UHGV virus genome: UHGV-0141439
DNA from: a virus
DNA: 64,000 nt
Direction: 5' to 3' (one strand)
This document shows, piece after piece, positions 1,798 through 48,453 of this stretch (the first letter of the stretch is position 1; every line of letters starts with the position of its first letter). The position numbers and the translations under genes are program-made. The notes under the pieces were generated by a model. It saw nothing but the letters and a program-made list of their open reading frames with translations. It did not search any database and was not told the origin of the DNA.

Positions 1798-1841
1798 CCA
1801 ATTGTGTTAGAAAATTCTATTCAATTATCTAACACAATTGG
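1798..1841. promoter_or_regulatory. Perfect 14-bp inverted repeat CCAATTGTGTTAGA-N16-TCTAACACAATTGG (paired operator-like sites)
   Basis: Read directly; lies 7 bp upstream of the rdgC start codon and overlaps its RBS. Confidence 0.6.
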
Positions 1842-4252: not shown

Positions 4253-5040
4253 TCGATCACTCCGTTTTGAGTCGTATCAAAATTCCTGGCAGGTATGCAG
4301 TAGTAAAGCGAACCAACATGCTGTGTGCCGTAGCTAAAAATACGGTGCACGTACCACCAGCGGCGGGCTACGCCGTTTACCATCTCTTCATTCCATTCAA
4401 GAATTGATCCGACGGGGACGTTATTTGCTGCAATACGCAGAATCAGAACATCATCGGTTAAGCCATCCTGCTCACCGTCTGCGTCAATCGCATGGAAAGA
4501 GTCACGCCCGTCCGGGTTATCCAGCACATAAACGATTTCAGGTTCCTGGTAAGTCAGTTCGCGCTGGTTGTTATCCAGTTCAGTGAATGACTCTTCTCCT
4601 GTTTCGTCGCTGACTACCCCATATGTGCCAACATCTGGTCGATATAAGAGAGCCTGAAACGCGTCTGGGCTGGATTCAATAATCAGCATCCAGTCTGCGC
4701 GGATTTGGTCGTTAAAGGCTTTATGCCCGTTATAGCGTGCTTTTAGCTGTGGAGTTGGTTCTCTGCCAGCCAGGGAAGGTGGAAGTATGGCTATATCTGA
4801 TTCGGCAGCATCCGGAGTAAGGCCAGCGTTGCTATCAGCAAAATTATCATGGCTATCAGCTTTGGCGGCGGGTTGCTCTTCCAGAATGCTGAATGAATCC
4901 GAACCGGTATTGCCATGTTCCGGCGCACCTCCTGCATTCGCTTCAATCGGCGCTGGCGTTTCTCTCTGCGTGCTGTCATGTTCTGACTCCTTACTTGCCA
5001 GGTTTGCATCGTCAGCAAACCATTCGTCAAAACGGCCCAT
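4249..5040 (-). CDS. Hypothetical acidic protein (operon first gene)
   Basis: Track ORF 4249-5142; likely start is the ATG at 5040 (MGRFDEW...), 6 nt after a GAGG. Confidence 0.4.
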   Translation of the reverse strand: MGRFDEWFADDANLASKESEHDSTQRETPAPIEANAGGAPEHGNTGSDSFSILEEQPAAKADSHDNFADSNAGLTPDAAESDIAILPPSLAGREPTPQLKARYNGHKAFNDQIRADWMLIIESSPDAFQALLYRPDVGTYGVVSDETGEESFTELDNNQRELTYQEPEIVYVLDNPDGRDSFHAIDADGEQDGLTDDVLILRIAANNVPVGSILEWNEEMVNGVARRWWYVHRIFSYGTQHVGSLYYCIPARNFDTTQNGVIE

Positions 5041-11312: not shown

Positions 11313-11633
11313 TTTGACACCCCCAGCGCGAGTAAAGAATGCAGATTATCGCGTGAGTGGCGGACAACGAGTGATGGGAAAAGACAGTAGCTGTTCATAG
11401 TGTAGTGACTCCTTGCTTTCGGAGCCGCCTTCGACTGTTCCACGGTCTGGTGGCGGCGCAATAAAGGCTGGAACACCGTGAGTCAACGGGGGCTTTTCAG
11501 CCACCTATATTGCACCGCCATAGGTATAGCGGCGGCAATAATACGAAAAACTAAACAGTTTGTCTCAAAAAGTTGACCGGTGTGCCAATCGGTAGTGAAT
11601 GTACATCGGAGAAATTTACAATTCAACTTAAAA

Positions 11634-11650
11634 TGTTAGAAAACTAATTT
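11634..11650. promoter_or_regulatory. 17-bp operator-like site TGTTAGAAAACTAATTT
   Basis: Matches the window-wide consensus; overlaps the ref stop codon. Confidence 0.5.
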
Positions 11651-12270: not shown

Positions 12271-12300
12271 TGTTAGATATTCAAAATTGATTTTCTAACA
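12271..12300. promoter_or_regulatory. Paired operator-like sites TGTTAGA-N16-TCTAACA
   Basis: Read directly; sits in the divergent region between ref and the 12495 gene. Confidence 0.6.
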
Positions 12301-12494
12301 CAAAATATTAATATCATTCCTGATAACTGTTTGGAGGACATGATGCTTATAGCTTTAAGTGCGATCCACCAGCCATCTGTGAATGAAATTGGCCTGTTCT
12401 ATGTGTTGTTTTTCGGGGCGTTGGCGCTACTTGAGCTTGGTATTGAGCTTTTCGCAGTGCTTATGTTTTGCGTCACGATTTTGGGGAAATTTTG

Positions 12495-16366: not shown

Positions 16367-16396
16367 TGTTAGATTGTTGATTTTAATTTTCTAACA
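16367..16396. promoter_or_regulatory. Paired operator-like sites TGTTAGA-N16-TCTAACA
   Basis: Read directly; about 45 bp upstream of the 16439 start. Confidence 0.6.
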
Positions 16397-16438
16397 TATT
16401 ATTTTACCGCTCGGAACAAAACAGAGTCGGTATGCATT

Positions 16439-17747: not shown

Positions 17748-18351
17748 CTATCAAGAACTGCGCGAGGCGGCGGAACAGGCAACGCAAGATGAATGGGTAG
17801 CATATATTTTGCCGGGTCATAACGGCATTTATCCTGCGCGCACATCTGAGGGTAGGCATTGCGGATACTTTATTGACTGGCCTGGCATTGATGGACAAAG
17901 GAATGCTGGTGCTAATGCCCGTTATATCGCTGCTATCCCACCAAAAGTTGCGTTGTCACTACTGGATGAAATTAAACGTCAGGAGGACTCAAATATTGAT
18001 GCTATGTGCCGTATTGCAGAGCTTGAAACTAATATCGCGGCGCTGGTGGCAGAGAACGCCGGACTGAAACACGCAATGGCCGTAACTCTTGAGCATGTGT
18101 CGGTAACGGATGCAGGGCAGGCCGGAGTTGCTGCGATGATTATTAATGATGCCCTGCACCACAGCGAAACGCCAGCTACCGACGCTTTCATGGCGGAAGT
18201 GCGGGCGCAGGGGGTGGATATGGCTCGTAACGCGATGATTGATTTTGTTGATGGTGAAGTTGGGCCAAACAAGAACGTTCCGGGTCTGATTAGAGGCGCA
18301 GAGATATGCGTAAGTATTGCTGAACAGCTTCGCAAAGGAGGCAACCAGTGA
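17734..18351 (+). CDS. Ea22-like family protein, paralogue 3
   Basis: N-terminus MSKINYQELREAAEQAT; C-terminus [16 protein letters not shown]...QLRKGGNQ. Confidence 0.45.
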   Translation: MSKINYQELREAAEQATQDEWVAYILPGHNGIYPARTSEGRHCGYFIDWPGIDGQRNAGANARYIAAIPPKVALSLLDEIKRQEDSNIDAMCRIAELETNIAALVAENAGLKHAMAVTLEHVSVTDAGQAGVAAMIINDALHHSETPATDAFMAEVRAQGVDMARNAMIDFVDGEVGPNKNVPGLIRGAEICVSIAEQLRKGGNQ

Positions 18352-26575: not shown

Positions 26576-26633
26576 AGCACCCTCCTAAATAGGCGAGGGT
26601 ACTTTACAGCAAAGACGTTAATCTAAAAAGATG

Positions 26634-26650
26634 TGTTAGAAATTTAATTT
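26634..26650. promoter_or_regulatory. 17-bp operator-like site TGTTAGAAATTTAATTT
   Basis: Exact consensus; overlaps the cre stop. Confidence 0.5.
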
Positions 26651-29171: not shown

Positions 29172-30680
29172 TCAAATATCCAGATCTGGCATTTCTACAT
29201 CTGCAAGAACCTGATCGCGGAAGGTAGCCATTTCAGCGCCGATATCTTCATTAGCAGGAACATAGTCCACCAGCATTGTAAAGCAGTAGGTATCCCATCG
29301 GTCAGGTGATTTGATGTTCAGCTTTTGCCGCATGTGCTCCTTGCGCATCATCGCCATCTTCCCTTCTTCATTAAGTAAAAAGGGGATTTTTGACGCTTGC
29401 TCTGCCGTTTTAGGGTCGCTGTCTATTCGCATACGACCTGACTTTATGGCATCACGAGCCATAATATTTGCGTAGGCACGCTGGTTAACAAAACGCTCCT
29501 TGTCTTTGTTCGAAAACATGGGTTTCCCCCACCGAATCCGTACCGGATTAGCCCCACGGCGCACCAGCTGCGCACAGGTATCTGAACCAAAACCGTCTGC
29601 GTCAACCGCGATTGTAATATTCGGGTATTTATCCGGCGTGCATTCGTTGTATATAAAGTCAGCAAAAGCCAGCGGGTCCATAGTCCCTGGCATTTCCATT
29701 ACCTTAAAGTTAACAACACGCCGCTTTTCCCGGTGACCAGACACTTTACAGATATTAAGAACTGACTTGTCTCGCCCGTTACCAACGTCAGCAGTAGCCA
29801 CCCATCCCCAGTTTTTCTCCAACAACACCTTGCGCCGCGCAGCGCGATCGCATTCATCACGACCAAGCAAATAGCCGTTAATCTCCCGAGGAAACTGACC
29901 AAGAACCTTGACCATGTACTCAATAGAATCGCGCCCGCCATATTCTAGGAGTTTCTGCCTGATGAATTGTGGTGTGACGAACGGTGATTCTTCTGAGTTA
30001 AGAACAATTGCTGTCCAGATCCCTTTCGGGTTGTCTGGGGTTTTAGCTTGAGAATGGTGCGAATCGTAGAAATAACCACTTGGCCTTGTTGGCTGGGATA
30101 GCATCAACATTCGGTTATCTTCTTCAGTCAGAGCGCCAGTCATTACGCCGATCGCTTTATCAGATATACCTGATGCTTCATCCAGAATTAGAAGCAAATG
30201 TGCCGCGTGCTCCCCCGCCAGAGCTTCTTCGTTACCGAGTCGATAGCCTTTGCAGAGAACTTCCCAGATCCCCTTTCGAGAGCGTTCATAAAACATGGTG
30301 TCAGACAGGACAAAATAGGTCTGTAACCACCCATGACGCTTAACGGCATTCGCCCAATACTGTTTAACGTATTTGAATACACCTGTCTTAACCTGACCTA
30401 TTTTGTTAGCAACAATGATGACACGGGCATCGGGGAACAGAATCAAATAAATCAGCAACAACATAGCCGTTAGCGACGATTTCCCTGTACCGTGACCAGA
30501 GGTAACAGTGGTTCTGCTCCCTTTTTGCTGTACGGACTGGATAATCTCCTGCTGCTGGTGGGAGGGAAACATCCCGAATATATCAACAACAGCCTGGGTA
30601 AAGTTGTAGCGGTATTTGATTACCATATCGCGCCAGCGTGGATCGCTGGTGACGCATTTAATCTTGCGCCCACCAGCCAT
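29172..30680 (-). CDS. pacB: Terminase large subunit (PacB-type)
   Basis: 502 aa; Walker A SGHGTGKSS, Walker B LLILDEAS; follows the pacA-like gene. Confidence 0.75.
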   Translation of the reverse strand: MAGGRKIKCVTSDPRWRDMVIKYRYNFTQAVVDIFGMFPSHQQQEIIQSVQQKGSRTTVTSGHGTGKSSLTAMLLLIYLILFPDARVIIVANKIGQVKTGVFKYVKQYWANAVKRHGWLQTYFVLSDTMFYERSRKGIWEVLCKGYRLGNEEALAGEHAAHLLLILDEASGISDKAIGVMTGALTEEDNRMLMLSQPTRPSGYFYDSHHSQAKTPDNPKGIWTAIVLNSEESPFVTPQFIRQKLLEYGGRDSIEYMVKVLGQFPREINGYLLGRDECDRAARRKVLLEKNWGWVATADVGNGRDKSVLNICKVSGHREKRRVVNFKVMEMPGTMDPLAFADFIYNECTPDKYPNITIAVDADGFGSDTCAQLVRRGANPVRIRWGKPMFSNKDKERFVNQRAYANIMARDAIKSGRMRIDSDPKTAEQASKIPFLLNEEGKMAMMRKEHMRQKLNIKSPDRWDTYCFTMLVDYVPANEDIGAEMATFRDQVLADVEMPDLDI

Positions 30681-32541: not shown

Positions 32542-32934
32542 CTACCAGCGAGATAAGCGAACGACGTGTTTTACCTTAGCGATCCACTTACCACGTGAGT
32601 TATTAATTACGGCCTGCGCCACCTTTAAGCTGACTTCAAAATCAGCCTTACGACCATCAGAATCCACCAGCGTTGCACCGTCTATTTCCGGCAGGCTTAA
32701 ATAATCCTGTTCTACCTCTAATGGCATTGACGGCTCTCTGAATGGTGTCAATTGCCGAGCTTTCCAGATAAAGCGAACTCTCAATCCCCTATAAGCCATT
32801 ACCATGTAGCCTGTTATCGTGCTCTTATGGCCTGCATCAGTACGCGCAGCATTACACGATACAATCTTACAGGTGACGATATTCCACTCCACGTTGGAGA
32901 CTTCGTGAATGCTTAATTTTGTTGTCTCGTACAT
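32542..32934 (-). CDS. Hypothetical protein
   Basis: 130-aa ORF. Confidence 0.4.
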   Translation of the reverse strand: MYETTKLSIHEVSNVEWNIVTCKIVSCNAARTDAGHKSTITGYMVMAYRGLRVRFIWKARQLTPFREPSMPLEVEQDYLSLPEIDGATLVDSDGRKADFEVSLKVAQAVINNSRGKWIAKVKHVVRLSRW

Positions 32935-33509
32935 CAGAATGCCTCCCAGTCAGTTGCGATAATATCCACGCCAGTTGCGAACCAGTCTGTCTGCGCCTGT
33001 AAATCCCCATTCATCATTACCAGGCGAGGCATAACCATCACATCGCACCCTTCCACAATATCGAATGCCTCTTCCGGCAAGAATTCGAAGAGCTTTTCTT
33101 TGCTGCCAATGCTGCCACGGAACATCGATAAATAGCTCCCTTTAGGCCATGATGCCCGGCGGGCATCCAGCCCCTTCATCATCCAGAACATGGCGGCAGA
33201 AAAATTGATGTTCTTTTTGGCGATGAAAACATTATTGGCTTCTGTTTGCTTCAGAAACTTAATTAGCCTTGCCATCGACTCGGATAACGCTACGTATGGC
33301 TCATGATTGGCTGCGGACACGCTCACACCATGTAATCCAACACTGACTACCGTCATATCGCCGCTTTGAGCGGTTTCAATGTTGACACCTTTGCGAACTA
33401 ACGAGGCATAAAGTTCCTCTCGCTTTTGTGTCCAGCGTTCCCGCTGACCGATGAAGTCACTCAATATGAGGTCTGCTTCTGCATACGCGTTATCGTTCGC
33501 CGTTAACAT
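32934..33509 (-). CDS. Hypothetical protein
   Basis: 191-aa ORF; AAAAGGAG RBS. Confidence 0.4.
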   Translation of the reverse strand: MLTANDNAYAEADLILSDFIGQRERWTQKREELYASLVRKGVNIETAQSGDMTVVSVGLHGVSVSAANHEPYVALSESMARLIKFLKQTEANNVFIAKKNINFSAAMFWMMKGLDARRASWPKGSYLSMFRGSIGSKEKLFEFLPEEAFDIVEGCDVMVMPRLVMMNGDLQAQTDWFATGVDIIATDWEAF

Positions 33510-33629
33510 AACGTCTCCTTTTTACACGCGCGACCATCCCTCGGTTAAACCGATAGAGATGTCGAAACTTCGTATTAATTAAGGGTTACAGCCTGAGCGG
33601 CTATATGATGAATTGAAAGGAGTTGTGGC

Positions 33630-33644
33630 GGTGGTGCCTCCACC
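33630..33644. other. Hairpin GGTGG-TGCCT-CCACC
   Basis: One of three hairpins with an identical loop and different complementary 5-bp stems. Confidence 0.4.
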
Positions 33645-33962
33645 TGCCAGGTTAGCCACTCCTGGCGACGTCACTTATCAGAACGTAGTGAATGAAAATG
33701 GCTTCGTCACGAGCGCATAGCCGCAATTACCACAACGGAAACGGCGCTCACGCTAATTAAACGCCTTTTCCTGTTGTGCGCCGTACTCTTCCGGCTGTCA
33801 CACCGAATCGCCAGGGTGGTGAGTCCTCGGTCCGACGATATGAACGGGGCTTGCACATTCCGGCTACCTGGTTTGTTGCCTGAGCTAGGGGAAAAGGTAA
33901 CCCCTTTAACGTCACCAGACCGCTAACGACGCATGTGCCATACGCCGTGTTACAACCAAATA

Positions 33963-34038
33963 TGGTGGCCCCTACCGGACTTGAACCGGTGACCGTGCGA
34001 TTATGAGTCGCCAGCTCTAACCACTGAGCTAAAGGGCC
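33963..34038 (-). tRNA. tRNA-Ile2/Met type, anticodon CAU
   Basis: Hand-folded 76-nt cloverleaf with encoded CCA; closely resembles E. coli ileX. Confidence 0.8.
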
Positions 34039-34208
34039 AGATTACTGTTAATTCCGCTTACGCTTTTTGCCAGAACCGCGTAAGGCTTTTGCCGCTTGCT
34101 CGATCCCATATGCAACCACCAGCAGAAATAAAAATGTCCAACCAGGGTTCTTATCGGCAAAGGCCCAAAAATCCATCACTTGCAGCTACCTTTTAAGACA
34201 AAACGCCA

Positions 34209-34223
34209 TTGCTGTTAGATTGC
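34209..34223. other. Hairpin CCTGG-TGCCT-CCAGG
   Basis: Second member of the covarying hairpin set. Confidence 0.4.
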
Positions 34224-34450
34224 GGTGCCTGGTGCCTCCAGGTGACGTTAACCAGTTAACAATTAACGCCGGGATGTTTGATTTAACCACTAAGGAGGAT
34301 TGTTTTAACTGTTCCGCGTGCGCTTAGCCGCATTCACCGCAATGGTAAGAGCACTTGGCTGGCTGGGCGGCGATGACGCCTGTACGCATTTGGTGATCCG
34401 GTTCTGCTTCCGGCATTCGCTTAATTAGCCAAATACTCTTAACGTTGCGC

Positions 34451-34537
34451 TGGCGGAGAGTAATGGAATCGAACCATCATCGCTTGCGCAATGGGACGGT
34501 TTTCAAGACCGCTTGAGCACCATGCTCCCTACTCTCC
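34451..34537 (-). tRNA. tRNA-Ser, anticodon UGA (class II, long variable arm), tentative
   Basis: 87 nt; GGAGAGT/ACTCTCC acceptor stem, loop CUUGAAA, GGTTCGATTCC T-arm, encoded CCA; D-arm spacing is atypical. Confidence 0.55.
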
Positions 34538-34682
34538 GGCCGTTGTGGTGGCCGGTACTGAATCTCCGGCATACGGTGCAGCCAATTAGGACTACGGACG
34601 ATCACCGCTCGCGAAAGGGAAGATTTGCGGCCGCATTTCCCTAACATCCAAGAAAGCTATCGCATCAGTCTGCGAATCCACC

Positions 34683-34774
34683 ACAACGTTGAGAACACTG
34701 GTTGTCACGCTGCAACGCAACATTTATTCGTAGATTGGGATATGACCCCGTTACGTCAGTGTTCTCAACGTTGT
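34683..34774. repeat. Perfect 18-bp inverted repeat ACAACGTTGAGAACACTG with 56-bp spacer
   Basis: Arms at 34683-34700 and 34757-34774. Confidence 0.6.
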
Positions 34775-35002
34775 AGTACCGGTTACGGTTCCGGCCAGGC
34801 CTCTTCCTCAACGGGGTATTCTCCATACGGACTACCGTTTATTGGTCGTTCCTGCGGTTTATGTTGTGAAGCCAGATGCTTATCTTCTGGTTGCTTCAAA
34901 GAGCTGCACTTCATCACAACGGTAAGGGTACTTCGTAGGGATTCGAACCCTCTGCCAAGCACGGCGATCTCCGACGTCGCAAAATACCCTTACCTGTTGT
35001 GT

Positions 35003-35078
35003 TGGTGCCGATTAACGGACTCGAACCGCTGACATCCTGCTTACAAGGCAGGCGCTCTACCAACTGAGCTAAACCGGC
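35003..35078 (-). tRNA. tRNA-Thr, anticodon UGU
   Basis: Canonical 76-nt cloverleaf, loop CUUGUAA, encoded CCA. Confidence 0.8.
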
Positions 35079-35080
35079 AT

Positions 35081-35157
35081 TGGCGATGGTGGGTGGATTC
35101 GAACCACCGACCGACAGCTTAGAAGGCTGCTGCTCTATCCTACTGAGCTACACCATC
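35081..35157 (-). tRNA. tRNA-Arg, anticodon UCU
   Basis: Canonical 77-nt cloverleaf, loop CUUCUAA, encoded CCA. Confidence 0.8.
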
Positions 35158-35660
35158 ACTTGCCGGTTACGTCTCCGGCGAGGGCTTCCACCTCCGTATG
35201 CTTTTCGGCGCACCGCGCCCTGGCTGCAATTCGGTAACAGGGGATGCACAACCCTGGCTTCCAGCGTGATTAGCGCCTTCAGCATGACGGGATATACCCG
35301 TAACCAACAAACTTTCCCATATACCATCAAACAATGGCTGTTACGCGGGAGGGACGTAACAGGTAAGGGCGCTGACCAGAAAGACCTGACCCTTCTCATT
35401 CATCTGGTTAATCACACCAGCGCCCTTGCCTGTTATGCCTCCCCGTTCCCTAATACACAGACGGGGACACTCTGCGGTCGATTTTTTGACGGGGGACGAC
35501 TCATACCCCGTGGCGTCTGGCTTCTTAGGCCGCTACCATCATCAGATCATCGTTTGCATTTACTTTAATGGTCGGTTTCTAAACCGCCGCAAAGCCGCTA
35601 ACCATGACGAAAACCCTAAAAAAGCCCACCCGAAGATGGGCAAATACGCTACATCTCACA

Positions 35661-35739
35661 CAAGAAAGAAGCCGACTGCCTGAGCTGGATTCACTTTCAA
35701 ATGCCCGCAGAAAGGGAACACAAGTCGGCTTCTTTCTTG
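35661..35739. repeat. Perfect 17-bp inverted repeat CAAGAAAGAAGCCGACT with 45-bp spacer
   Basis: Arms at 35661-35677 and 35723-35739. Confidence 0.6.
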
Positions 35740-35856
35740 ATGCGGCACTCTCTCCGCCCGTCACCGCTCTGTCTCGGTTGTCGCGTTTGCCACGCCAGCC
35801 ATAACGAGGTTTAAAGTCTTTGCACGTTTCCATCACTCGACTGCCGTCTGTGGCTG

Positions 35857-35871
35857 TTCGTTGCAGCGGGG
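35857..35871. other. Hairpin GGGGG-TGCCT-CCCCC
   Basis: Third member of the covarying hairpin set; followed by the palindrome GGGGATATCCCC. Confidence 0.4.
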
Positions 35872-35956
35872 GTGCCTCCCCCTGGGGATATCCCCGGCCT
35901 TACCCCATTCTTTCAAGACACAATGCAAGGCCGCATCCGCATAGGTGCATTACCGC

Positions 35957-36021
35957 AACATTAAGGAGACTTAGGGCAAAAGGTAATCGCCACAAAAAAA
36001 TCCCTATGCCTCCTTAATGTT
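35957..36021. repeat. 12-bp inverted repeat AACATTAAGGAG with 41-bp spacer
   Basis: Arms at 35957-35968 and 36010-36021. Confidence 0.55.
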
Positions 36022-36030
36022 GAGGATGTG

Positions 36031-36088
36031 CATTGATGATGATTCGATGCGGCGAGTCCCGTTACTCTCTGCCGGACCATCATCAATG
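36031..36088. repeat. 11-bp inverted repeat CATTGATGATG with 36-bp spacer
   Basis: Arms at 36031-36041 and 36078-36088. Confidence 0.55.
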
Positions 36089-36221
36089 AACATCTTAAAA
36101 AGACCTTCCGTGGCTCAACATGTCTTGTCGTTTACTCCGTAAAGTGCTCTCTCTGAAACCACTTTACGCACTAAACCTGCTGAACTTTGGCTTGCTCGGT
36201 GCCAAAGCGAATCCCTGTATG

Positions 36222-36238
36222 CATGTAATTTTCTAACA
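36222..36238. promoter_or_regulatory. 17-bp operator-like site (reverse orientation)
   Basis: Plus strand CATGTAATTTTCTAACA. Confidence 0.45.
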
Positions 36239-36377
36239 CTTTAATTTGTTATTTGCTGGTGGGCGAACAACAACCAATAAGTGACTATCAAGCCCAGCAA
36301 GCGAAATGTGGCAACGCTCCACCAGCAAGGAAAATTCTAAGTTAAGTTACTCTCACAATCAATATGTTCGTTTGGTG

Positions 36378-36394
36378 AAATTAGATTTCTAACA
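36378..36394. promoter_or_regulatory. 17-bp operator-like site (reverse orientation), with a degenerate partner TGTTCGT 16 bp upstream
   Basis: Plus strand AAATTAGATTTCTAACA; overlaps the stop region of the 406-aa gene. Confidence 0.5.
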
Positions 36395-36396
36395 CA

Positions 36397-37617
36397 TTAT
36401 TTCCCATAAAGATCTTCTACGCCCCCATTCTTCTTGTCCCATTCGTTAGCCCACACCCGGCAGGCATCAATAATTTCTTGACGACGGTCGCCCTGCATAA
36501 AGGGGATGCTTTCATGAAAACTACTTGGGATACAGGCCACGCTGAATACGGTATCAAACGCAGTCTGTTTGATAGCTTCCAACGTCTCTGGGCGCATTTT
36601 CAATTCATCGATCGGCGCATCCTTAGAGTCCATAATCCGGCGATGCAGGCGCGGGAAATCAGTCTCCAGGTACGCCATAATTTTATCTGCCAGGCATTCG
36701 TCTATATCGGTATTCCAGTCCGTTTCGAAGCCGGGCAGGCGATAGTAAAGCGGCGTTCCCCATACTGATGGGATCACATCCATCGTCAGCAGGCGGTTGG
36801 TTCTAATTTGTTGATGGTAATTAGCCGTCAACAGAGCTTCACCACGCTGACCAGTCTCCGCAACCAGACCATGCGGGTACTCATGGATATAGGCAATAGC
36901 ATCCACCCCGTCATACATGAGCGGGAATGTCTCTGGCCTTTGTCCCATACCACAAGCGCGGTTCAGATCATGACCAAGCTGTGAGCACTCTCGTTTCAGC
37001 GTTTCAATAATGTTCTGCGCTGCTGCTAACTTTTTACGCAGTGTGACGCCTTCGCCTTGATACTTAATGCATTGCTGATTCAGCTCTGTTAAACGCTCTT
37101 TTAGTTCCCGACGCTCTCTTTTCAGCGCACGGTTATCCTTCTCCGCAACATCCAGTCGTTTTGACAGACTGGCTGGATAGTCTTTTTTGTAACGACTCAA
37201 ATCGGCTTCTGCGGATTTGCGCAGTGTGTTTGCCTGTTCAAGACGCGCTTCCAGATTGCCGATCTCACTACGCATATTCGCGGCAAATTGATTAACAGCA
37301 TTGCCAAGACTTTCAACTGTCGCTGATACGCCTGTGACTTGTGAAAAACGGATCAAGCCATCATTAACGGCTTGTTGATATTCCTCAAACTGATCCACCA
37401 GCTTGTTGTAATCAACCGTCCCTTCCTCAAGTAGCTGGTTGATCTCCGCGACCAGGTTATCAGTAGTGGCAATGACGCTCTCATGTAGCCGTCTAGACAG
37501 GTCATCCCCCGGATTCCGCTTTTGAATAAGGGCGATCTGTGTCCGCAGCGTTTCAATCGCGGCTGAGATGATTTCCAGATTAGAAGTATCAGTTTGTTGA
37601 CTCATTGCAGTTCCCAT
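36397..37617 (-). CDS. Hypothetical 406-aa protein, N-terminal coiled coil plus C-terminal globular domain, flanked by operator-like sites
   Basis: Track ORF; likely start at MSQQTD (37605); no recognisable catalytic motif. Confidence 0.5.
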   Translation of the reverse strand: MGTAMSQQTDTSNLEIISAAIETLRTQIALIQKRNPGDDLSRRLHESVIATTDNLVAEINQLLEEGTVDYNKLVDQFEEYQQAVNDGLIRFSQVTGVSATVESLGNAVNQFAANMRSEIGNLEARLEQANTLRKSAEADLSRYKKDYPASLSKRLDVAEKDNRALKRERRELKERLTELNQQCIKYQGEGVTLRKKLAAAQNIIETLKRECSQLGHDLNRACGMGQRPETFPLMYDGVDAIAYIHEYPHGLVAETGQRGEALLTANYHQQIRTNRLLTMDVIPSVWGTPLYYRLPGFETDWNTDIDECLADKIMAYLETDFPRLHRRIMDSKDAPIDELKMRPETLEAIKQTAFDTVFSVACIPSSFHESIPFMQGDRRQEIIDACRVWANEWDKKNGGVEDLYGK

Positions 37618-37627
37618 TGTTTTTGCA

Positions 37628-37644
37628 AAATTAGTTTTCTAACA
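37628..37644. promoter_or_regulatory. 17-bp operator-like site (reverse orientation) upstream of the 406-aa gene
   Basis: Plus strand AAATTAGTTTTCTAACA. Confidence 0.5.
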
Positions 37645-37719
37645 TATTTTATTAGTATGAGAACAAGATCGAAAGATGTGATAAACAAAAAACCCGCTAA
37701 TCGGCGGGTTTTTGAGCGG

Positions 37720-38230: not shown

Positions 38231-38722
38231 TTAATCAAGACAAACATATTCCGTGATAGCTTTTATGGCTTCAGCGGCACTGCGCGCCTCAAAGCAGTAG
38301 TAACCTGCTTCGGTGAGGCGAGTCATCCAGACGAGTTGTTCGGGAGTCAGGCGATTTCTCCCATGTTTCATCTCAATGCGCATTCCGTGGTATCCCCCAC
38401 AAGCAAGGTCTATAGAAAGATCGGGATATCCCTTCTTTTGGCCCTCTGCCACCATTTTTATTGCCGTCCTTATGCCTCGCAGACCGCCGTTTGGAGTGGC
38501 GTGTGTATGCTCATACACATAGCGCATATTGCGATACAACCAATCCAGGACGCGTACCTGCTCGTAATGCTCATGGTTCCTTTTGATTAGATCTGGGTTT
38601 TTCTCCAGTTCTCTGAGAGCTGCGGCATGTGGTGATGTTTCAGAATATTCACTGCGACGCCTTCTTTTTCTCGCTATTTTTCTAACACACCCATTGATAG
38701 TAAATAAGCGAAATAATAACAA
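38231..38722 (-). CDS. VRR-NUC domain nuclease (PD-(D/E)xK-type)
   Basis: EHYEQVRVLDWL...HATPNGG...GYPDLSIDLA...GMRIEMKHGRNRLTPEQLVWMTRLTEAGY matches the VRR-NUC pattern; start codon uncertain (TTG at 38722); an operator-like TCTAACA lies inside the 5' end. Confidence 0.5.
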   Translation of the reverse strand: MLLFRLFTINGCVRKIARKRRRRSEYSETSPHAAALRELEKNPDLIKRNHEHYEQVRVLDWLYRNMRYVYEHTHATPNGGLRGIRTAIKMVAEGQKKGYPDLSIDLACGGYHGMRIEMKHGRNRLTPEQLVWMTRLTEAGYYCFEARSAAEAIKAITEYVCLD

Positions 38723-48272: not shown

Positions 48273-48453
48273 GCTGCTAAACGGGTGGCAGGACGTGACG
48301 GGGTTAGCAGACTGGCACGAATGAAACCAGCAGGCCGAAGCCTCCCCATCACGCCCCACCATAATTCGGGCGTAACGTGGTTTTACGGACACAAAAATAC
48401 CGCAATATCGGATATCTGCGGTTGTCCGCATTCGTATTCAGGCTGCTAAACCC
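48273..48453 (-). ncRNA. Candidate C4-like antisense-RNA control region
   Basis: On the minus strand GUUUAGCAGC occurs at 48453-48442 and 48282-48273 and its complement GUCUGCUAACCC at 48312-48301, giving alternative pairings just upstream of the icd RBS. Confidence 0.3.

Follow-up and report, generated by a model that had tools for sequence, protein, structure and literature searches.

What is the function of a stretch of phage DNA that holds four tRNA genes, hardly any protein-coding sequence and a large number of hairpins? The island in question occupies positions 33510-36396 of the 64,000 nucleotides analysed here, from UHGV virus genome UHGV-0141439, the whole of which we call the window. 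A first-pass annotation had described it as structured non-coding DNA around tRNAs, a description that was borne out: the region is kept in D6, P1, P7 and more than 1000 phage-plasmids. We tentatively propose, with somewhat less than even confidence, that it is an operon of mostly non-coding RNA, read from the minus strand of a D6/P1-type phage-plasmid of E. coli, in which repeated modules, each a long RNase III hairpin (LH) followed by a closed scaffold RNA (a unit), would punctuate a polycistronic transcript.

All signals in the island read on the minus strand, as do the four tRNAs (Table 1), each of which had been correctly claimed. The acceptor stem and most of the T arm of tRNA-Arg are common to the tRNA-Asn of P1/D6. 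The earlier view that there is no convincing ORF holds for the island at large and fails for one small frame, that of a TciC-like protein; the ORFs that overlap tRNAs were rightly dismissed, as RefSeq lists only the tRNAs and this 43-aa ORF. The genes tciA and tciB of D6/P1 are not present in this island. Between 33300 and 36600 only the candidate promoter matches the consensus; a copy of a TTTCTAACAC motif lies on either side of it (36230-36246 and 36386-36402). The terminator comes directly after LHx, and the conserved leader contains long stretches that are invariant across six phages. Downstream of the island, the product of the Tad2-like gene bears the RefSeq name 'Thoeris anti-defense Tad2 family protein'.

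Table 1. Features of the island and of the adjoining downstream gene, in window coordinates, listed in the direction of minus-strand reading.
Feature	Position	Strand	Remarks
Candidate sigma-70-like promoter	36334..36362	-	TTGATT-17-TAGAAT, consensus match; upstream end of island
LHy	36031..36088	-	Long imperfect hairpin, the fourth inverted repeat of the first-pass annotation; -26 kcal/mol
LH1	35956..36022	-	13 bp perfect, ~20 bp with one mismatch; 3' arm overlaps first 4 nt of helix P1 of unit C
Type I unit C (STnc100-like)	35857..35962	-	Model R1 39.7 bits, E=9e-8; same fold as A and B
TGCCT hairpin, stem GGGGG/CCCCC	35868-35882		Helix P5 of unit C
LHx	35661..35739	-	17 bp perfect; 19-20 bp in all
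Intrinsic terminator	35612..35641	-	GCCCAUCUUCGGGUGGGC-U6; also at 3' end of the annotated 'dicF-like region' of phage P1
LH2	35347..35443	-	CAUAACAGGCAAGGGCGCUGG.../...CAGCGCCCUUACCUGUUA; >25 bp with mismatches
tRNA-Arg (UCU; Arg-tct)	35081..35157	-	ARAGORN/Rfam/RefSeq calls
tRNA-Thr (UGU; Thr-tgt)	35003..35078	-	
LH3	34914..34996	-	tRNA-like T arm GGGUUCGAAUCCC inside; 3' arm continues into miniature unit
Miniature, degenerate type II unit	34861..34923	-	Model R2 18 bits, E=0.01
LH4	34680..34777	-	21-22 bp (18 perfect, 34683-34774); 3' arm holds GUUGUGGU strand of unit D
Type II unit D	34540..34690	-	Model R2 50.2 bits, E=1.4e-10; P2 loop ACUGA kisses terminal loop UCAGU
tRNA-Ser (UGA; Ser-tga)	34451..34537	-	
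LH5	34344..34443	-	Abuts unit B
Type I unit B	34216..34346	-	Model R1 125 bits, E=1e-27; homologue of E. coli K-12 dicF-dicB spacer
TGCCT hairpin, stem CCTGG/CCAGG	34228-34242		Helix P5 of unit B
TciC-like small membrane protein ORF	34048..34179	-	43 aa; sole RefSeq CDS within island
tRNA, anticodon CAT	33963..34038	-	tRNA-Ile2 per RefSeq and phage P1 annotation
Conserved non-coding leader	33780..33962	-	Common to tRNA-Ile/ban interval of phage P1; DicF-like 12-mer UCUGGUGACGUU
LH6	33729..33779	-	3' arm holds GUUGUG strand of unit A; phage P1 homology stops here
Type I unit A	33619..33739	-	Model R1 49.7 bits, E=4e-10; single-sequence fold
TGCCT hairpin, stem GGTGG/CCACC	33630-33644		Helix P5 of unit A
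Tad2-like (anti-Thoeris) gene	32934..33509	-	Pfam PF11195, E=1.5e-9; ~110 nt downstream of unit A

One hint of a selected structure had been three hairpins with different stems around one TGCCT loop. When both strands of the 64 kb were scanned for a perfect 5-bp stem with this loop, exactly three were found, on one strand and all inside the island. The 65 TGCCT pentamers of the window would give about 0.06 such hairpins by chance, and TGCCT is the sole pentaloop that recurs three times on 5-bp stems in the window. The first-pass annotation placed the hairpin at 33630 exactly and the other two, put at 34209 and 35857, wrongly by 10-20 nt. Since the minus strand is the functional one, the loop in the RNA reads AGGCA, the type II loop AGAUCAGCA in shortened form; its supposed invariance holds within the window and breaks down in relatives, where P1 has AAGCA and Ro157c2YLVW has AGGAA. 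Covariation as the signature of a selected RNA, for which the annotation had suggested an analysis across related genomes, was confirmed by compensatory changes in many relatives. Of its reading as a selected RNA or protein-binding hairpin, the selected RNA stands and the stand-alone element does not. Each hairpin is the last helix (P5) of a five-helix, cloverleaf-shaped phage RNA of about 120 nt (105-130 nt) that is closed by a 9-bp stem.

This RNA, the type I unit, consists, as units in general do, of the closing 9-bp helix P1 (GUUGYGGUG / CACCRCAAC), a small P2 hairpin, a hypervariable middle that is unalignable even among otherwise near-identical units, and the terminal hairpin stacked on P1. 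We searched the 64 kb with a covariance model, R1, made only from other phages, the window and D6 sequences having been left out; the matches were units A, B and C only, the next best having E=0.17. Across 66 distinct sequences 98.8% of cells are paired, as against 26-46% in slid controls, with compensatory changes in 16 of the 25 pairs, and the frequent G-U pairs fit an RNA of the minus strand only. The P2 helix covaries within the window itself, between unit C (GCACC/GGaUGC) and unit B (GCGGC/GCaCGC). Units A and C are extra copies that are found only in D6-like elements. In 95 of 105 loci a start codon lies 20-39 nt beyond the end of the B-type unit, the proteins being DicB, KilR, TciA/TerB and others, and in most E. 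coli genomes the module stands ahead of dicB and kilR, which encode inhibitors of cell division. Of 38 distinct P3 segments, 16 carry an anti-Shine-Dalgarno-like 5-mer (CCUCCUUA in unit B) where shuffling gives 2.7, counts that are not independent because the sequences are phylogenetically related.

The type I units are relatives of the gammaproteobacterial sRNA STnc100 (Rfam RF02076) that fall below the family threshold. Unit B scores 39.4 bits with the STnc100 model (E=2.4e-6; gathering score 47), units A and C have no match in Rfam at E<=10, and homologues in D6, P7, SJ46, P1 and K-12 score 33-43 bits. Conversely, R1 matches canonical STnc100 copies, which reach 74-75 bits in Rfam, at 42-62 bits. 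The core of STnc100 recurs in the units, which likewise have an outer stem, an AAU linker leading into a 5-bp P2 and, abutting and stacked on the outer stem, a terminal 5-bp hairpin whose loop is AGGCA (CNGGG-AGGCA-CCCNG). Both RNAs are phage- or prophage-borne and immediately upstream of a gene. The window units, however, cover only positions 31-147 of the 206 in the model, differ in P2 sequence (GCGGCUAAGCGCaCGC against CCCCCUGUGCGGAGGGG) and lie in the tRNA island of a phage-plasmid, whereas STnc100 lies downstream of stx2 or Q.

EcOnc27, an sRNA that is bound by Hfq and lies downstream of stx2, overlaps STnc100 (PMC12711010), and PasD (members PasD1 and PasD2), which is alignable with STnc100, came to light in Hfq RIL-seq and was verified by northern blot (bioRxiv 10.64898/2026.05.13.724894). 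This kinship raises an alternative that we consider unlikely, though by no means negligible: the units may be trans-acting, Hfq-dependent sRNAs of the STnc100/PasD/EcOnc27 family, their helices forming a scaffold and the hypervariable middle an exchangeable seed against host or competitor mRNAs. An unalignable middle domain would suit such a seed, as would the 5-mer enriched in P3, although that enrichment is counted from related sequences. Units A and B and nearly all B-type homologues lack a terminator of their own, which, together with a start codon 20-39 nt further on, makes them leaders rather than separate genes, and the position of type II units directly before tRNAs would be odd for a stand-alone regulator.

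If type I units are leaders, they could act in cis on the translation of a toxic or membrane-active gene (dicB, kilR, tciA, tciC), either through a CU-rich P3 loop that hides the ribosome binding site or by sensing a signal. The fixed spacing to the start codons of cell-division inhibitors and small membrane proteins, the anti-Shine-Dalgarno-like motifs in P3 and a conserved multi-helix junction of riboswitch size are all consistent with such control. Nevertheless, we think it improbable. Duplexes between P3 and the ribosome binding site are no better in cognate than in non-cognate pairs (-11.5 versus -12.0 kcal/mol), a comparison of low power because all the binding sites share GGAG; the best-conserved parts, P1, P2 and P5, are distant from the binding site; no credible ORF follows unit C; and type II units are found ahead of tRNAs and small RNAs.

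The type II units, of which the window has unit D and a miniature, form a subtype absent from Rfam, and their model, R2, also cross-matches type I units B and A. A few nt downstream of unit D begins tRNA-Ser, and the downstream flank of the miniature matches that of a full-length unit elsewhere (L070). The two loops of the subtype covary as a kissing pair (GCUGA/UCAGC, ACUGA/UCAGU and GGUGA/UCACC, plus G-U variants), with a mean complementary run of 5.05 as against 3.48 in shuffled loops. A 25-nt signature at the 5' end is exactly conserved from Enterobacterales to Betaproteobacteria, with further single exact matches in one alphaproteobacterial record and one Geobacteraceae MAG. What comes after a type II unit is a tRNA, a DicF-like RNA, a short RNA that ends in a terminator, or an ORF; about 1 in 10 of the units have a tRNA on the same strand behind them, none has an antisense one, and 90% have no tRNA nearby. 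One locus (L250) has a tRNA where the LH would be, and another (L261) has a tRNA-like sequence within the variable domain.

The units share much with tRNAs and with the engineered 'tRNA scaffolds' that serve to express RNA inserts: a terminal arm stacks on the closing stem, a second arm lies close to the 5' strand, the loops of the two arms touch, and a variable insert occupies the opposite side. It is a rather doubtful proposition, in our view, that types I and II together constitute a single, hitherto undescribed and very widespread class of phage RNAs shaped like tRNA, with a hypervariable domain in the place of the anticodon arm. Were it true, the units would be natural 'tRNA scaffolds', punctuation marks for RNase P or other tRNA enzymes, or decoys for tRNA-targeting defence nucleases; the exactness of the 25-nt signature across classes suggests that it is read by a universal host machine. 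Very unlikely is outright mimicry, with RNase P cutting at the units ('tRNA punctuation') or the units deflecting tRNA-targeting defence nucleases. Mimicry could account for a class II tRNA topology (closing stem, D-like arm after a 3-nt linker, stacked T-like 5-bp arm, covarying loop-loop contact), for units interleaved with tRNAs on the same strand, for the occasional same-strand and never antisense tRNA downstream, for the tRNA and tRNA-like insert of L250 and L261, and for spare tRNAs in an island with a Tad2-like gene downstream; moreover, the C4 RNA of phage P1 is reportedly matured by RNase P. Yet tRNA models and ARAGORN pick out the four true tRNAs and none of the units, and neither ARAGORN nor Rfam calls LH3 a tRNA. 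Helix P1 has 9 bp rather than 7, the T-like loop 5 or 9 nt rather than 7, and there is no anticodon arm, CCA or discriminator; the lack of any nearby tRNA at 90% of type II units also argues against mimicry.

The long hairpins lead back to the modular operon that we favour. All four inverted repeats reported earlier are present, LH4, LHx and LH1 with perfect cores and LHy imperfect, and at least four more (LH2, LH3, LH5 and LH6) had been missed. The island, 4.5% of the window, contains 3/5 of its perfect hairpins of at least 12 bp, of which shuffled sequence gives 0.2 per 64 kb. These repeats are not independent elements, most being physically coupled to units via a common GUUGUGG strand, and most units come after such a hairpin. 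A hairpin of 12 bp or more has its end between -7 and +1 nt of the start of helix P1 in 32 of 42 type II and 24 of 79 type I units, compared with 30 of 400 random sites; for hairpins of at least 16 bp the counts are 19 of 42, 10 of 79 and 2 of 400. The LH arm sequences are unrelated between contigs. Orthologous LHs are too alike for covariation tests, with 3 compensatory changes and many 'broken' pairs that stem from indels; LH2 has one compensatory U-A to C-G change in relatives. Helix P1 is missing when the uncut precursors LH4-D and LH6-A are folded by minimum free energy, and it forms in unit A folded without the upstream LH arm and in unit D folded alone. RNase III processing hairpins, such as those of the dicBF operon and of T7 early RNA, have a duplex of some 20 bp or more in the transcript, and stems of this size are found in LH4, LHx, LH1 (~20 bp) and LH2.

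In the mechanism that we propose, RNase III would cut the LH, and the cut would release the GUUGUGG strand and allow helix P1 to close. The resulting compact, nuclease-resistant 5' domain may then stay on the downstream tRNA, terminator-ended sRNA or small-protein (often toxic) mRNA, while tRNAs and small RNAs would be freed by RNase P and RNase E. Several observations sit uneasily with this module model. There is no strand competition in the LH5-B fold, no recognised unit follows LH2, LHx or LHy, and in lambdoid phages the B-type unit usually comes after DicF, not after an LH. A 5' cap that only protects needs no 25-nt sequence that is exact across proteobacterial classes, a degree of conservation that points to a specific partner. 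In addition, with the published relatives EcOnc27 and PasD bound by Hfq, a trans-acting role fits at least as well.

Much of the proposed operon is shared with P1 and P7, to whose leader 33777-35644 is about 92% identical in blocks; blocks 33777-34049, 34215/34314-34358 and 34663-35644 are 90-96% identical to P1, P7, SJ46 and Ro157. In P1/P7 the C1-controlled ban leader runs dicF-like region, tRNA-Asn, tRNA-Thr, tciABC, tRNA-Ile, ban, and it has in common with the window tRNA-Thr, tRNA-Ile, LH2-LH4, one type I and one type II unit, and the terminator. Homology ends at that terminator (35644), before the promoter region. The window island has no P1-type C1 operator and is not downstream of Pban; it lies, as in D6, between pmgS and the tad2-like gene/orf5/lpa, whereas the P1 leader is upstream of ban. 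Relative to P1, tRNA-Arg(UCU) replaces tRNA-Asn, tRNA-Ser has been gained, and tciA and tciB are lacking.

Homology to P1, P7, SJ46 and Ro157 breaks at LH or unit ends (33777-9, 34353-8, 34663 and 34777-9), and cassette content varies among relatives (Asn/Arg, Tyr, Ser, tciABC, SPFH genes). Such a pattern could arise if the hairpins acted as DNA, as attC-like or 'linker' recombination sites at cassette boundaries that shuffle tRNAs and genes among P1-like phages, and the conserved AAC...GTT ends resemble attC cores. We regard this as extremely improbable. Breakpoints at conserved sequence are expected of ordinary homologous recombination, all elements lie on one strand along with the tRNAs, and the same units are single copies in lambdoid pL operons without a cassette array. 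G-U pairs are frequent, at one position even the most frequent state (35 of 63), and in the DNA of the opposite strand they would be mismatched. A direct comparison with integron attC sites, C(C/U)ACAAC ... GTTGTGG against RYYYAAC ... GTTRRRY, found agreement in AAC/GTT only and disfavours the idea.

The operon that we propose follows the same grammar as dicBF of the Qin prophage of E. coli K-12: a long hairpin, a closed unit, an sRNA with a terminator, a B-type unit and a small toxic protein. The dicF-dicB spacer of Qin and unit B share about 82% identity. The window has no match to DicF (RF00039) at E<=10, where Evi and K-12 give 76 bits, and its likeness to DicF is a 12-nt identity to the DicF 5' end within 33900-33925. 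[quoted passage not shown] 2023 bioRxiv 10.1101/2023.04.14.536235; Faubladier 1990). That length equals one closed unit plus DicF, and the LH-like hairpin of Qin (L129 417-502) contains the predicted 5' end of the precursor (position 490), a site placed by arithmetic (190 minus 53 nt, ~+/-5 nt) rather than from a published coordinate. Qin has two modules where the window has five or more in tandem, and the payloads differ, those of the window being tRNAs, a TciC-like peptide and a Tad2-like gene.

The three hairpins with an invariant TGCCT loop, which had first drawn attention because their stems differ and yet remain complementary, are part of a larger structured RNA. Exactly three perfect 5-bp stems of this kind exist in the window when both strands are considered, all on one strand and within the island (the tRNA and RNA region of about 2.9 kb), against about 0.06 expected by chance from the 65 TGCCT pentamers in the window. 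A permissive Rfam scan gave a minus-strand match to RF02076 (STnc100) below the gathering score of 47, and the 3' hairpin of that model, CGGG-AGGCA-CCCG, is the TGCCT hairpin read from the opposite strand. The three regions align with one another and each, folded singly, gives the same architecture: a closing stem of 8-9 bp (helix P1, GUUGYGGU / RCCRCAAC), an AAU linker, a short P2 hairpin, variable middle hairpins, a P4 hairpin, and P5, a 5-bp AGGCA hairpin stacked directly upon P1. A covariance model of this type I RNA, R1, was built from 12 homologues in other phages, with window and D6 sequences left out. Run with filters off over the 64-kb window, it finds exactly three significant sites, units A, B and C, and the next match has E=0.17. 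Bona fide STnc100 copies (74-75 bits in Rfam) score 42-62 bits with R1, which argues that the window units are STnc100 relatives scoring under Rfam's threshold.

The pairing of type I units is well supported among relatives, as folding and covariation analysis of the kind proposed in the first-pass annotation bears out. An alignment of 66 distinct sequences, fitted to R1 and thereby biased towards the structure, has 98.8% of its cells paired and compensatory changes in 16 of 25 pairs; slid controls are 26-46% paired. P1 and P5, again with covariation, emerge as well from an independent run of MAFFT/RNAalifold. The frequent G-U pairs in these units indicate an RNA of the minus strand and not a DNA cruciform. 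Homology breakpoints between relatives do fall at module boundaries, as might suit hairpins that serve recombination at the DNA level, but the G-U pairs and the strand bias leave that explanation disfavoured. The specific reading as integron-like attC sites was rejected for its core-site mismatch as well as for the G-U pairs.

R1 also gave weak matches beside B-type units in several contigs, and another in the window, that define a second subtype. Type II units have P1 and the AAU linker in common with type I and differ in the rest: P2 is GCGCA-GGCUGA-UGCGC, the terminal hairpin is GCCGG-AGAUCAGCA-CCGGC, and the middle is hypervariable (35-110 nt). The corresponding model, R2, from which window-like sequences were left out, recovers unit D and a 63-nt mini unit and cross-matches the type I units B (40.7 bits) and A (22.4 bits). 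The mini unit replaces a provisional 'unit F' (34771-34913), and a further candidate, 'region E', matched neither R1 nor R2. A Rfam search at the type II units returned no match. Two weak hits in the window, one from each model, are probably due to chance; that of R1 covers only a P1-like closing stem (GCUGUGGUG/CAUCGCAGC).

Features of the window discussed in the text, with the scores or characters on which they rest
Feature	Coordinates	Strand	Score or character
Perfect hairpin outside island	1798-1841		14-bp stem, 16-nt loop, AT-rich sequence
Weak R2 match	4857-5036	-	14.8 bits, E=0.06
Repeated motif, four copies	11626-11642, 12292-12308, 16388-16404, 26626-26642
Weak R1 match	18127-18168	-	12.9 bits, E=0.17
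Perfect hairpin outside island	30310-30406		12-bp stem, 73-nt loop
130-aa protein of unknown function, after Tad2-like gene	32542-32934	-	phrog_7004
Tad2-like protein gene	32934-33509	-	PF11195, E=1.5e-9; RefSeq name
Unit A (type I)	33619-33739	-	R1 49.7 bits, E=4e-10
TGCCT hairpins	33630-33644, 34228-34242, 35868-35882		perfect 5-bp stems
Conserved stretch after tRNA-Ile	33780-33962	-	~190 nt
12-mer within this stretch	~33900-33925		UCUGGUGACGUU
Unit B (type I)	34216-34346	-	R1 125 bits, E=1e-27
Rfam match to STnc100	34221-34341	-	RF02076, 39.4 bits, E=2.4e-6
R1 weak match leading to type II	34539-34690
Unit D (type II)	34540-34690	-	R2 50.2 bits, E=1.4e-10
Mini unit (type II)	34861-34923	-	R2 E=0.01
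Long hairpin LH3	34914-34996	-	T arm enclosed
tRNA-Arg(UCU)	35081-35157	-	position of tRNA-Asn(GUU) in relatives
'Region E'	35158-35346
Terminator in common with phage P1	within 35612-35644
Unit C (type I)	35857-35962	-	R1 39.7 bits, E=9e-8
Repeated motif, four copies	36230-36246, 36386-36402, 37636-37652, 38679-38695
C4 antisense RNA	48281-48366	-	71.9 bits
a1/b1 target element of C4	48435-48487	-	52.2 bits

Two loops of type II units appear to touch: GCUGA in P2 can pair with UCAGC in the terminal hairpin, and this complementarity covaries (ACUGA/UCAGU in unit D and in P7, a G-U pair in D6, GGUGA/UCACC in one metagenomic copy), with a mean complementary run of 5.05 versus 3.48 in shuffled loops. 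The type I loop AGGCA aligns to AG----GCA of the type II loop, and a possible 3-bp contact with the P2 loop, GCU:GGC, is kept. We infer that a loop-loop contact may explain the constancy of the AGGCA/TGCCT loop. Nearly all viral contigs carrying the 16-mer GCGCAGGCTGATGCGC contain a significant type II unit, and the exact 25-mer GTGGTGAATGCGCAGGCTGATGCGC is present in 50 species-representative genomes: many Enterobacterales, Aeromonas, Marinobacterium, Moraxellaceae and Lysobacterales, the Betaproteobacteria Janthinobacterium, Massilia, Undibacterium and Xenophilus, a Martelella record and a Geobacteraceae metagenome-assembled genome (MAG). Since a simple protective cap would leave 25 identical nucleotides across proteobacterial classes unexplained, this conservation suggests a universal partner of the units.

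Type I units occupy a fixed place. In P1, P7, SJ46 and D6, the leader of the ban operon has the B-type unit just 5' of tciA (terB), and in the pL operon of lambdoid phages it is immediately 3' of DicF and immediately 5' of kil. In the Qin prophage of E. coli K-12 it forms the spacer between dicF and dicB (701-824 of the Qin locus analyzed, where the dicB start codon is at 854). We found it in 4673 of 5426 complete E. coli genomes (86%), with a median of two copies, and apart from overlaps with the dicB coding sequence no RefSeq feature lies under it among the records listed. In 95 of the 105 loci listed, 20-39 nt separate the end of the unit from a start codon, and the proteins encoded behind it in these loci are DicB, KilR, TciA/TerB, a 78-aa membrane protein and a few others. 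It is possible that the units exert a translational role in cis on such toxic genes. The energies calculated with RNAduplex between variable domain and downstream ribosome binding site are no better for cognate (-11.5 kcal/mol) than for non-cognate pairs (-12.0 kcal/mol), a comparison that says little because all of these binding sites share GGAG. In the window, unit B is 5' of a TciC-like ORF, unit C has only non-coding RNA downstream, and unit A precedes a Tad2-like (anti-Thoeris) gene by about 110 nt, which links the RNA and tRNA island to an anti-defence gene.

What follows type II units is still more varied: tRNA-Ser (5 nt on), tRNA-Met, DicF-like RNAs, short terminator-ended sequences, or ORFs. 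Six hand-picked loci had suggested that these units mark tRNA clusters. Of the loci listed, 9 of 111 viral ones and 5 of 50 genomic ones have a same-strand tRNA within 450-600 nt behind the unit, an enriched minority and no rule, and none has an antisense tRNA there. An intact tRNA stands in place of the long hairpin in a Massilia genome, and a Geobacteraceae MAG has a tRNA-like sequence within the variable domain of the unit. Payloads this diverse speak for a generic leader or maturation module and against a gene-specific switch.

The four long inverted repeats reported earlier were all recovered. Of the five perfect hairpins in the window with 12 bp or more, three fall in the 2.9-kb island, against 0.2 per 64 kb in shuffled sequence; the other two are listed in the table. 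Read along the minus strand, the island consists of a promoter-like site, the long hairpin LHy, LH1-unit C, LHx, a terminator and LH2, followed by tRNA-Arg, tRNA-Thr, LH3-mini unit, LH4-unit D, tRNA-Ser and LH5-unit B, and finally the tciC-like ORF, tRNA-Ile, a conserved leader, LH6-unit A and the tad2-like gene. Five of the long hairpins (LHs) have a 3' arm that overlaps or abuts the 5' strand of helix P1, so that GUUGUGG can pair either with an upstream CACAAC, at the base of the LH, or with a downstream CACAAC, in P1. A hairpin of at least 12 bp ends between -7 and +1 nt of the P1 start in 32 of 42 type II units and 24 of 79 type I units, and at 30 of 400 random positions; for stems of at least 16 bp the counts are 19/42, 10/79 and 2/400. 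Arm sequences at matching positions are unrelated from contig to contig. Relatives are too similar for covariation to be judged within orthologous LHs, which show only three compensatory changes, and the support for these hairpins is therefore the statistical excess together with unrelated arms at the same position. A canonical T arm (GGGUUCGAAUCCC) lies inside LH3, along with what may be a 7-bp acceptor-like stem. One arm is missing, and LH3 is likely to be a tRNA remnant inside an extended stem, a situation comparable to that of the Massilia locus in which a tRNA replaces the long hairpin.

Minimum-free-energy folds of the uncut LH4-D and LH6-A precursors contain the LH and lack P1, which forms when unit A is folded minus the upstream LH arm and when unit D is folded by itself. 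Strand competition is partial for LH1-C and absent for LH5-B. An index-based check for P1 returned zero for LH3-mini and LH4-D even without the LH arm; coordinate register offsets were blamed, and the printed folds were read instead.

The Qin prophage offers a link to RNase III. Upstream of DicF lies a hairpin like the LHs (417-502 of the Qin locus, bases CAUAAC...GUUGUGG). DicF is described as arising through a precursor of 190 nt that depends on RNase III and a product of 53 nt made by RNase E (Faubladier 1990, cited and confirmed in Ragunathan et al. 2023). By calculation (627+53-190), the precursor would begin at position 490, give or take about 5 nt, within the 3' arm (483-502) of the hairpin and a few nucleotides 5' of a closed unit. 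This unit (495-612, GUUGUGGC...GCUGCAAC) is of a third kind, with a CU-rich loop UUAUUCCUU; it lies between the RNase III hairpin and DicF and is the non-DicF part of the precursor. With a precursor end inside an LH-like hairpin, the LHs of the window would by analogy be RNase III sites and the units the stable 5' domains of processed RNAs. The annotated 'dicF-like region' of phage P1 matches the terminal hairpin of the third-kind unit, not DicF, and has a terminator in common with the window. Separately, the stretch after tRNA-Ile is near-invariant in the window, D6, P1, P7, Ro157 and SJ46. It carries a 12-mer that matches the 5' end of DicF exactly and, after it, a hairpin with a conserved stem and a variable loop; the stretch may be part of the ban leader or a DicF-like small RNA that has escaped annotation.

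Our preferred reading is a processing cassette. RNase III would cleave the LH, P1 would then close, and the compact unit, held by its loop-loop contact, would cap the 5' end of the downstream RNA, from which RNase P and RNase E would free tRNAs and small RNAs. The main rival holds that the units are trans-acting Hfq sRNAs with the hypervariable middle as seed. STnc100 overlaps EcOnc27 (PMC12711010), PasD aligns with STnc100 (bioRxiv 10.64898/2026.05.13.724894), and the hypervariable middle is enriched in anti-Shine-Dalgarno-like 5-mers (16/38 versus 2.7 in shuffles). The two readings are compatible, as a scaffold could display a variable domain.

The window itself comes from a D6-type phage-plasmid. 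Escherichia phage D6 matches 33400-36500 with 95% identity across 94% of the length, and P1, P7, SJ46 and other P1-like phages with about 92% identity over 40-55%. Two E. coli plasmids, NZ_CP116989.1 and p92_MLI108-2 (NZ_CP116996.1), 92,487 bp, are 99.9-100% identical to this region, and the C4 RNA and its a1/b1 targets at 48.3-48.5 kb confirm a P1-type immunity (immI) region. Present in D6 and P1, tciA (terB) and tciB are absent from the window (34180-34215 compared with 2260-2890 of the D6 locus), a difference of about 0.6 kb at a module boundary that leaves unit B directly ahead of the TciC-like ORF. This 43-aa ORF, the single one that RefSeq annotates in the island, is TciC-like and not TciB-like; it is the one exception to the view that the island has no convincing ORF. 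No Pfam family matches the other ORFs there, including the plus-strand counterparts of 'plp/upl' in P1 and an ORF of 162 aa; the sole match for one of them is a PHROG of unknown function.

All four tRNAs were found again by ARAGORN and Rfam on the minus strand (Arg-UCU, Thr-UGU, Ser-UGA and a CAU tRNA that is tRNA-Ile2 in the P1 annotation and RefSeq). The tRNA-Arg(UCU) occupies the position of tRNA-Asn(GUU) in P1, P7 and D6, with the same acceptor stem and discriminator, a nearly identical T arm, and different D (with A20) and anticodon arms. The pattern suggests that a phage tRNA was remoulded or had an internal part exchanged. Eight copies of a motif, TTTCTAACAC(W)TTAWTT (reverse RTGTTAGAAAAYTAATTT), are present in the window, where 0.78 would be expected. 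The inverted repeat TTAGAAAWCTAA is found within several of them; the promoter-like site at the island head has one copy on either side, and another is just upstream of pmgS. This TTTCTAACAC/TGTGTTAGAAA motif is probably a regulatory site, putatively a D6-type C1 operator or late-promoter box.

STnc100, PasD and EcOnc27 are among the enterobacterial 'sRNAs' most often annotated, and we know of no mechanism for any of them. The island places them in a larger structured family with a defined five-helix fold and a second subtype, not in Rfam, that is conserved across proteobacterial classes. Long hairpins are physically joined to members of the family, and arithmetic mapping in Qin puts one of these hairpins at a known RNase III site. 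The family also sits at a fixed place 5' of phage tRNAs, small RNAs and toxic genes (dicB, kilR). As K-12 is among the E. coli genomes that carry a unit, the proposed mechanism can be tested directly in a common laboratory strain. Should the modules serve as cassettes for processing and stabilising RNA, they would explain how tRNAs and small RNAs mature from the long early transcripts of temperate phages, and could act as natural RNA-expression scaffolds.

The tRNA/ban leader of P1, the STnc100 family in Rfam, and the processing of DicF by RNases III and E were already known, and our search found nothing specific on the P1/D6 island in the literature. New relative to the searched literature and Rfam 15 are the five-helix type I model with its covariation; the type II subtype, its kissing loop and its very wide distribution; the coupling of LH and unit via a common strand; the finding that the dicF-dicB and kilR leaders are type I RNA; and the tandem array of at least five modules among the tRNAs of D6-type phage-plasmids.
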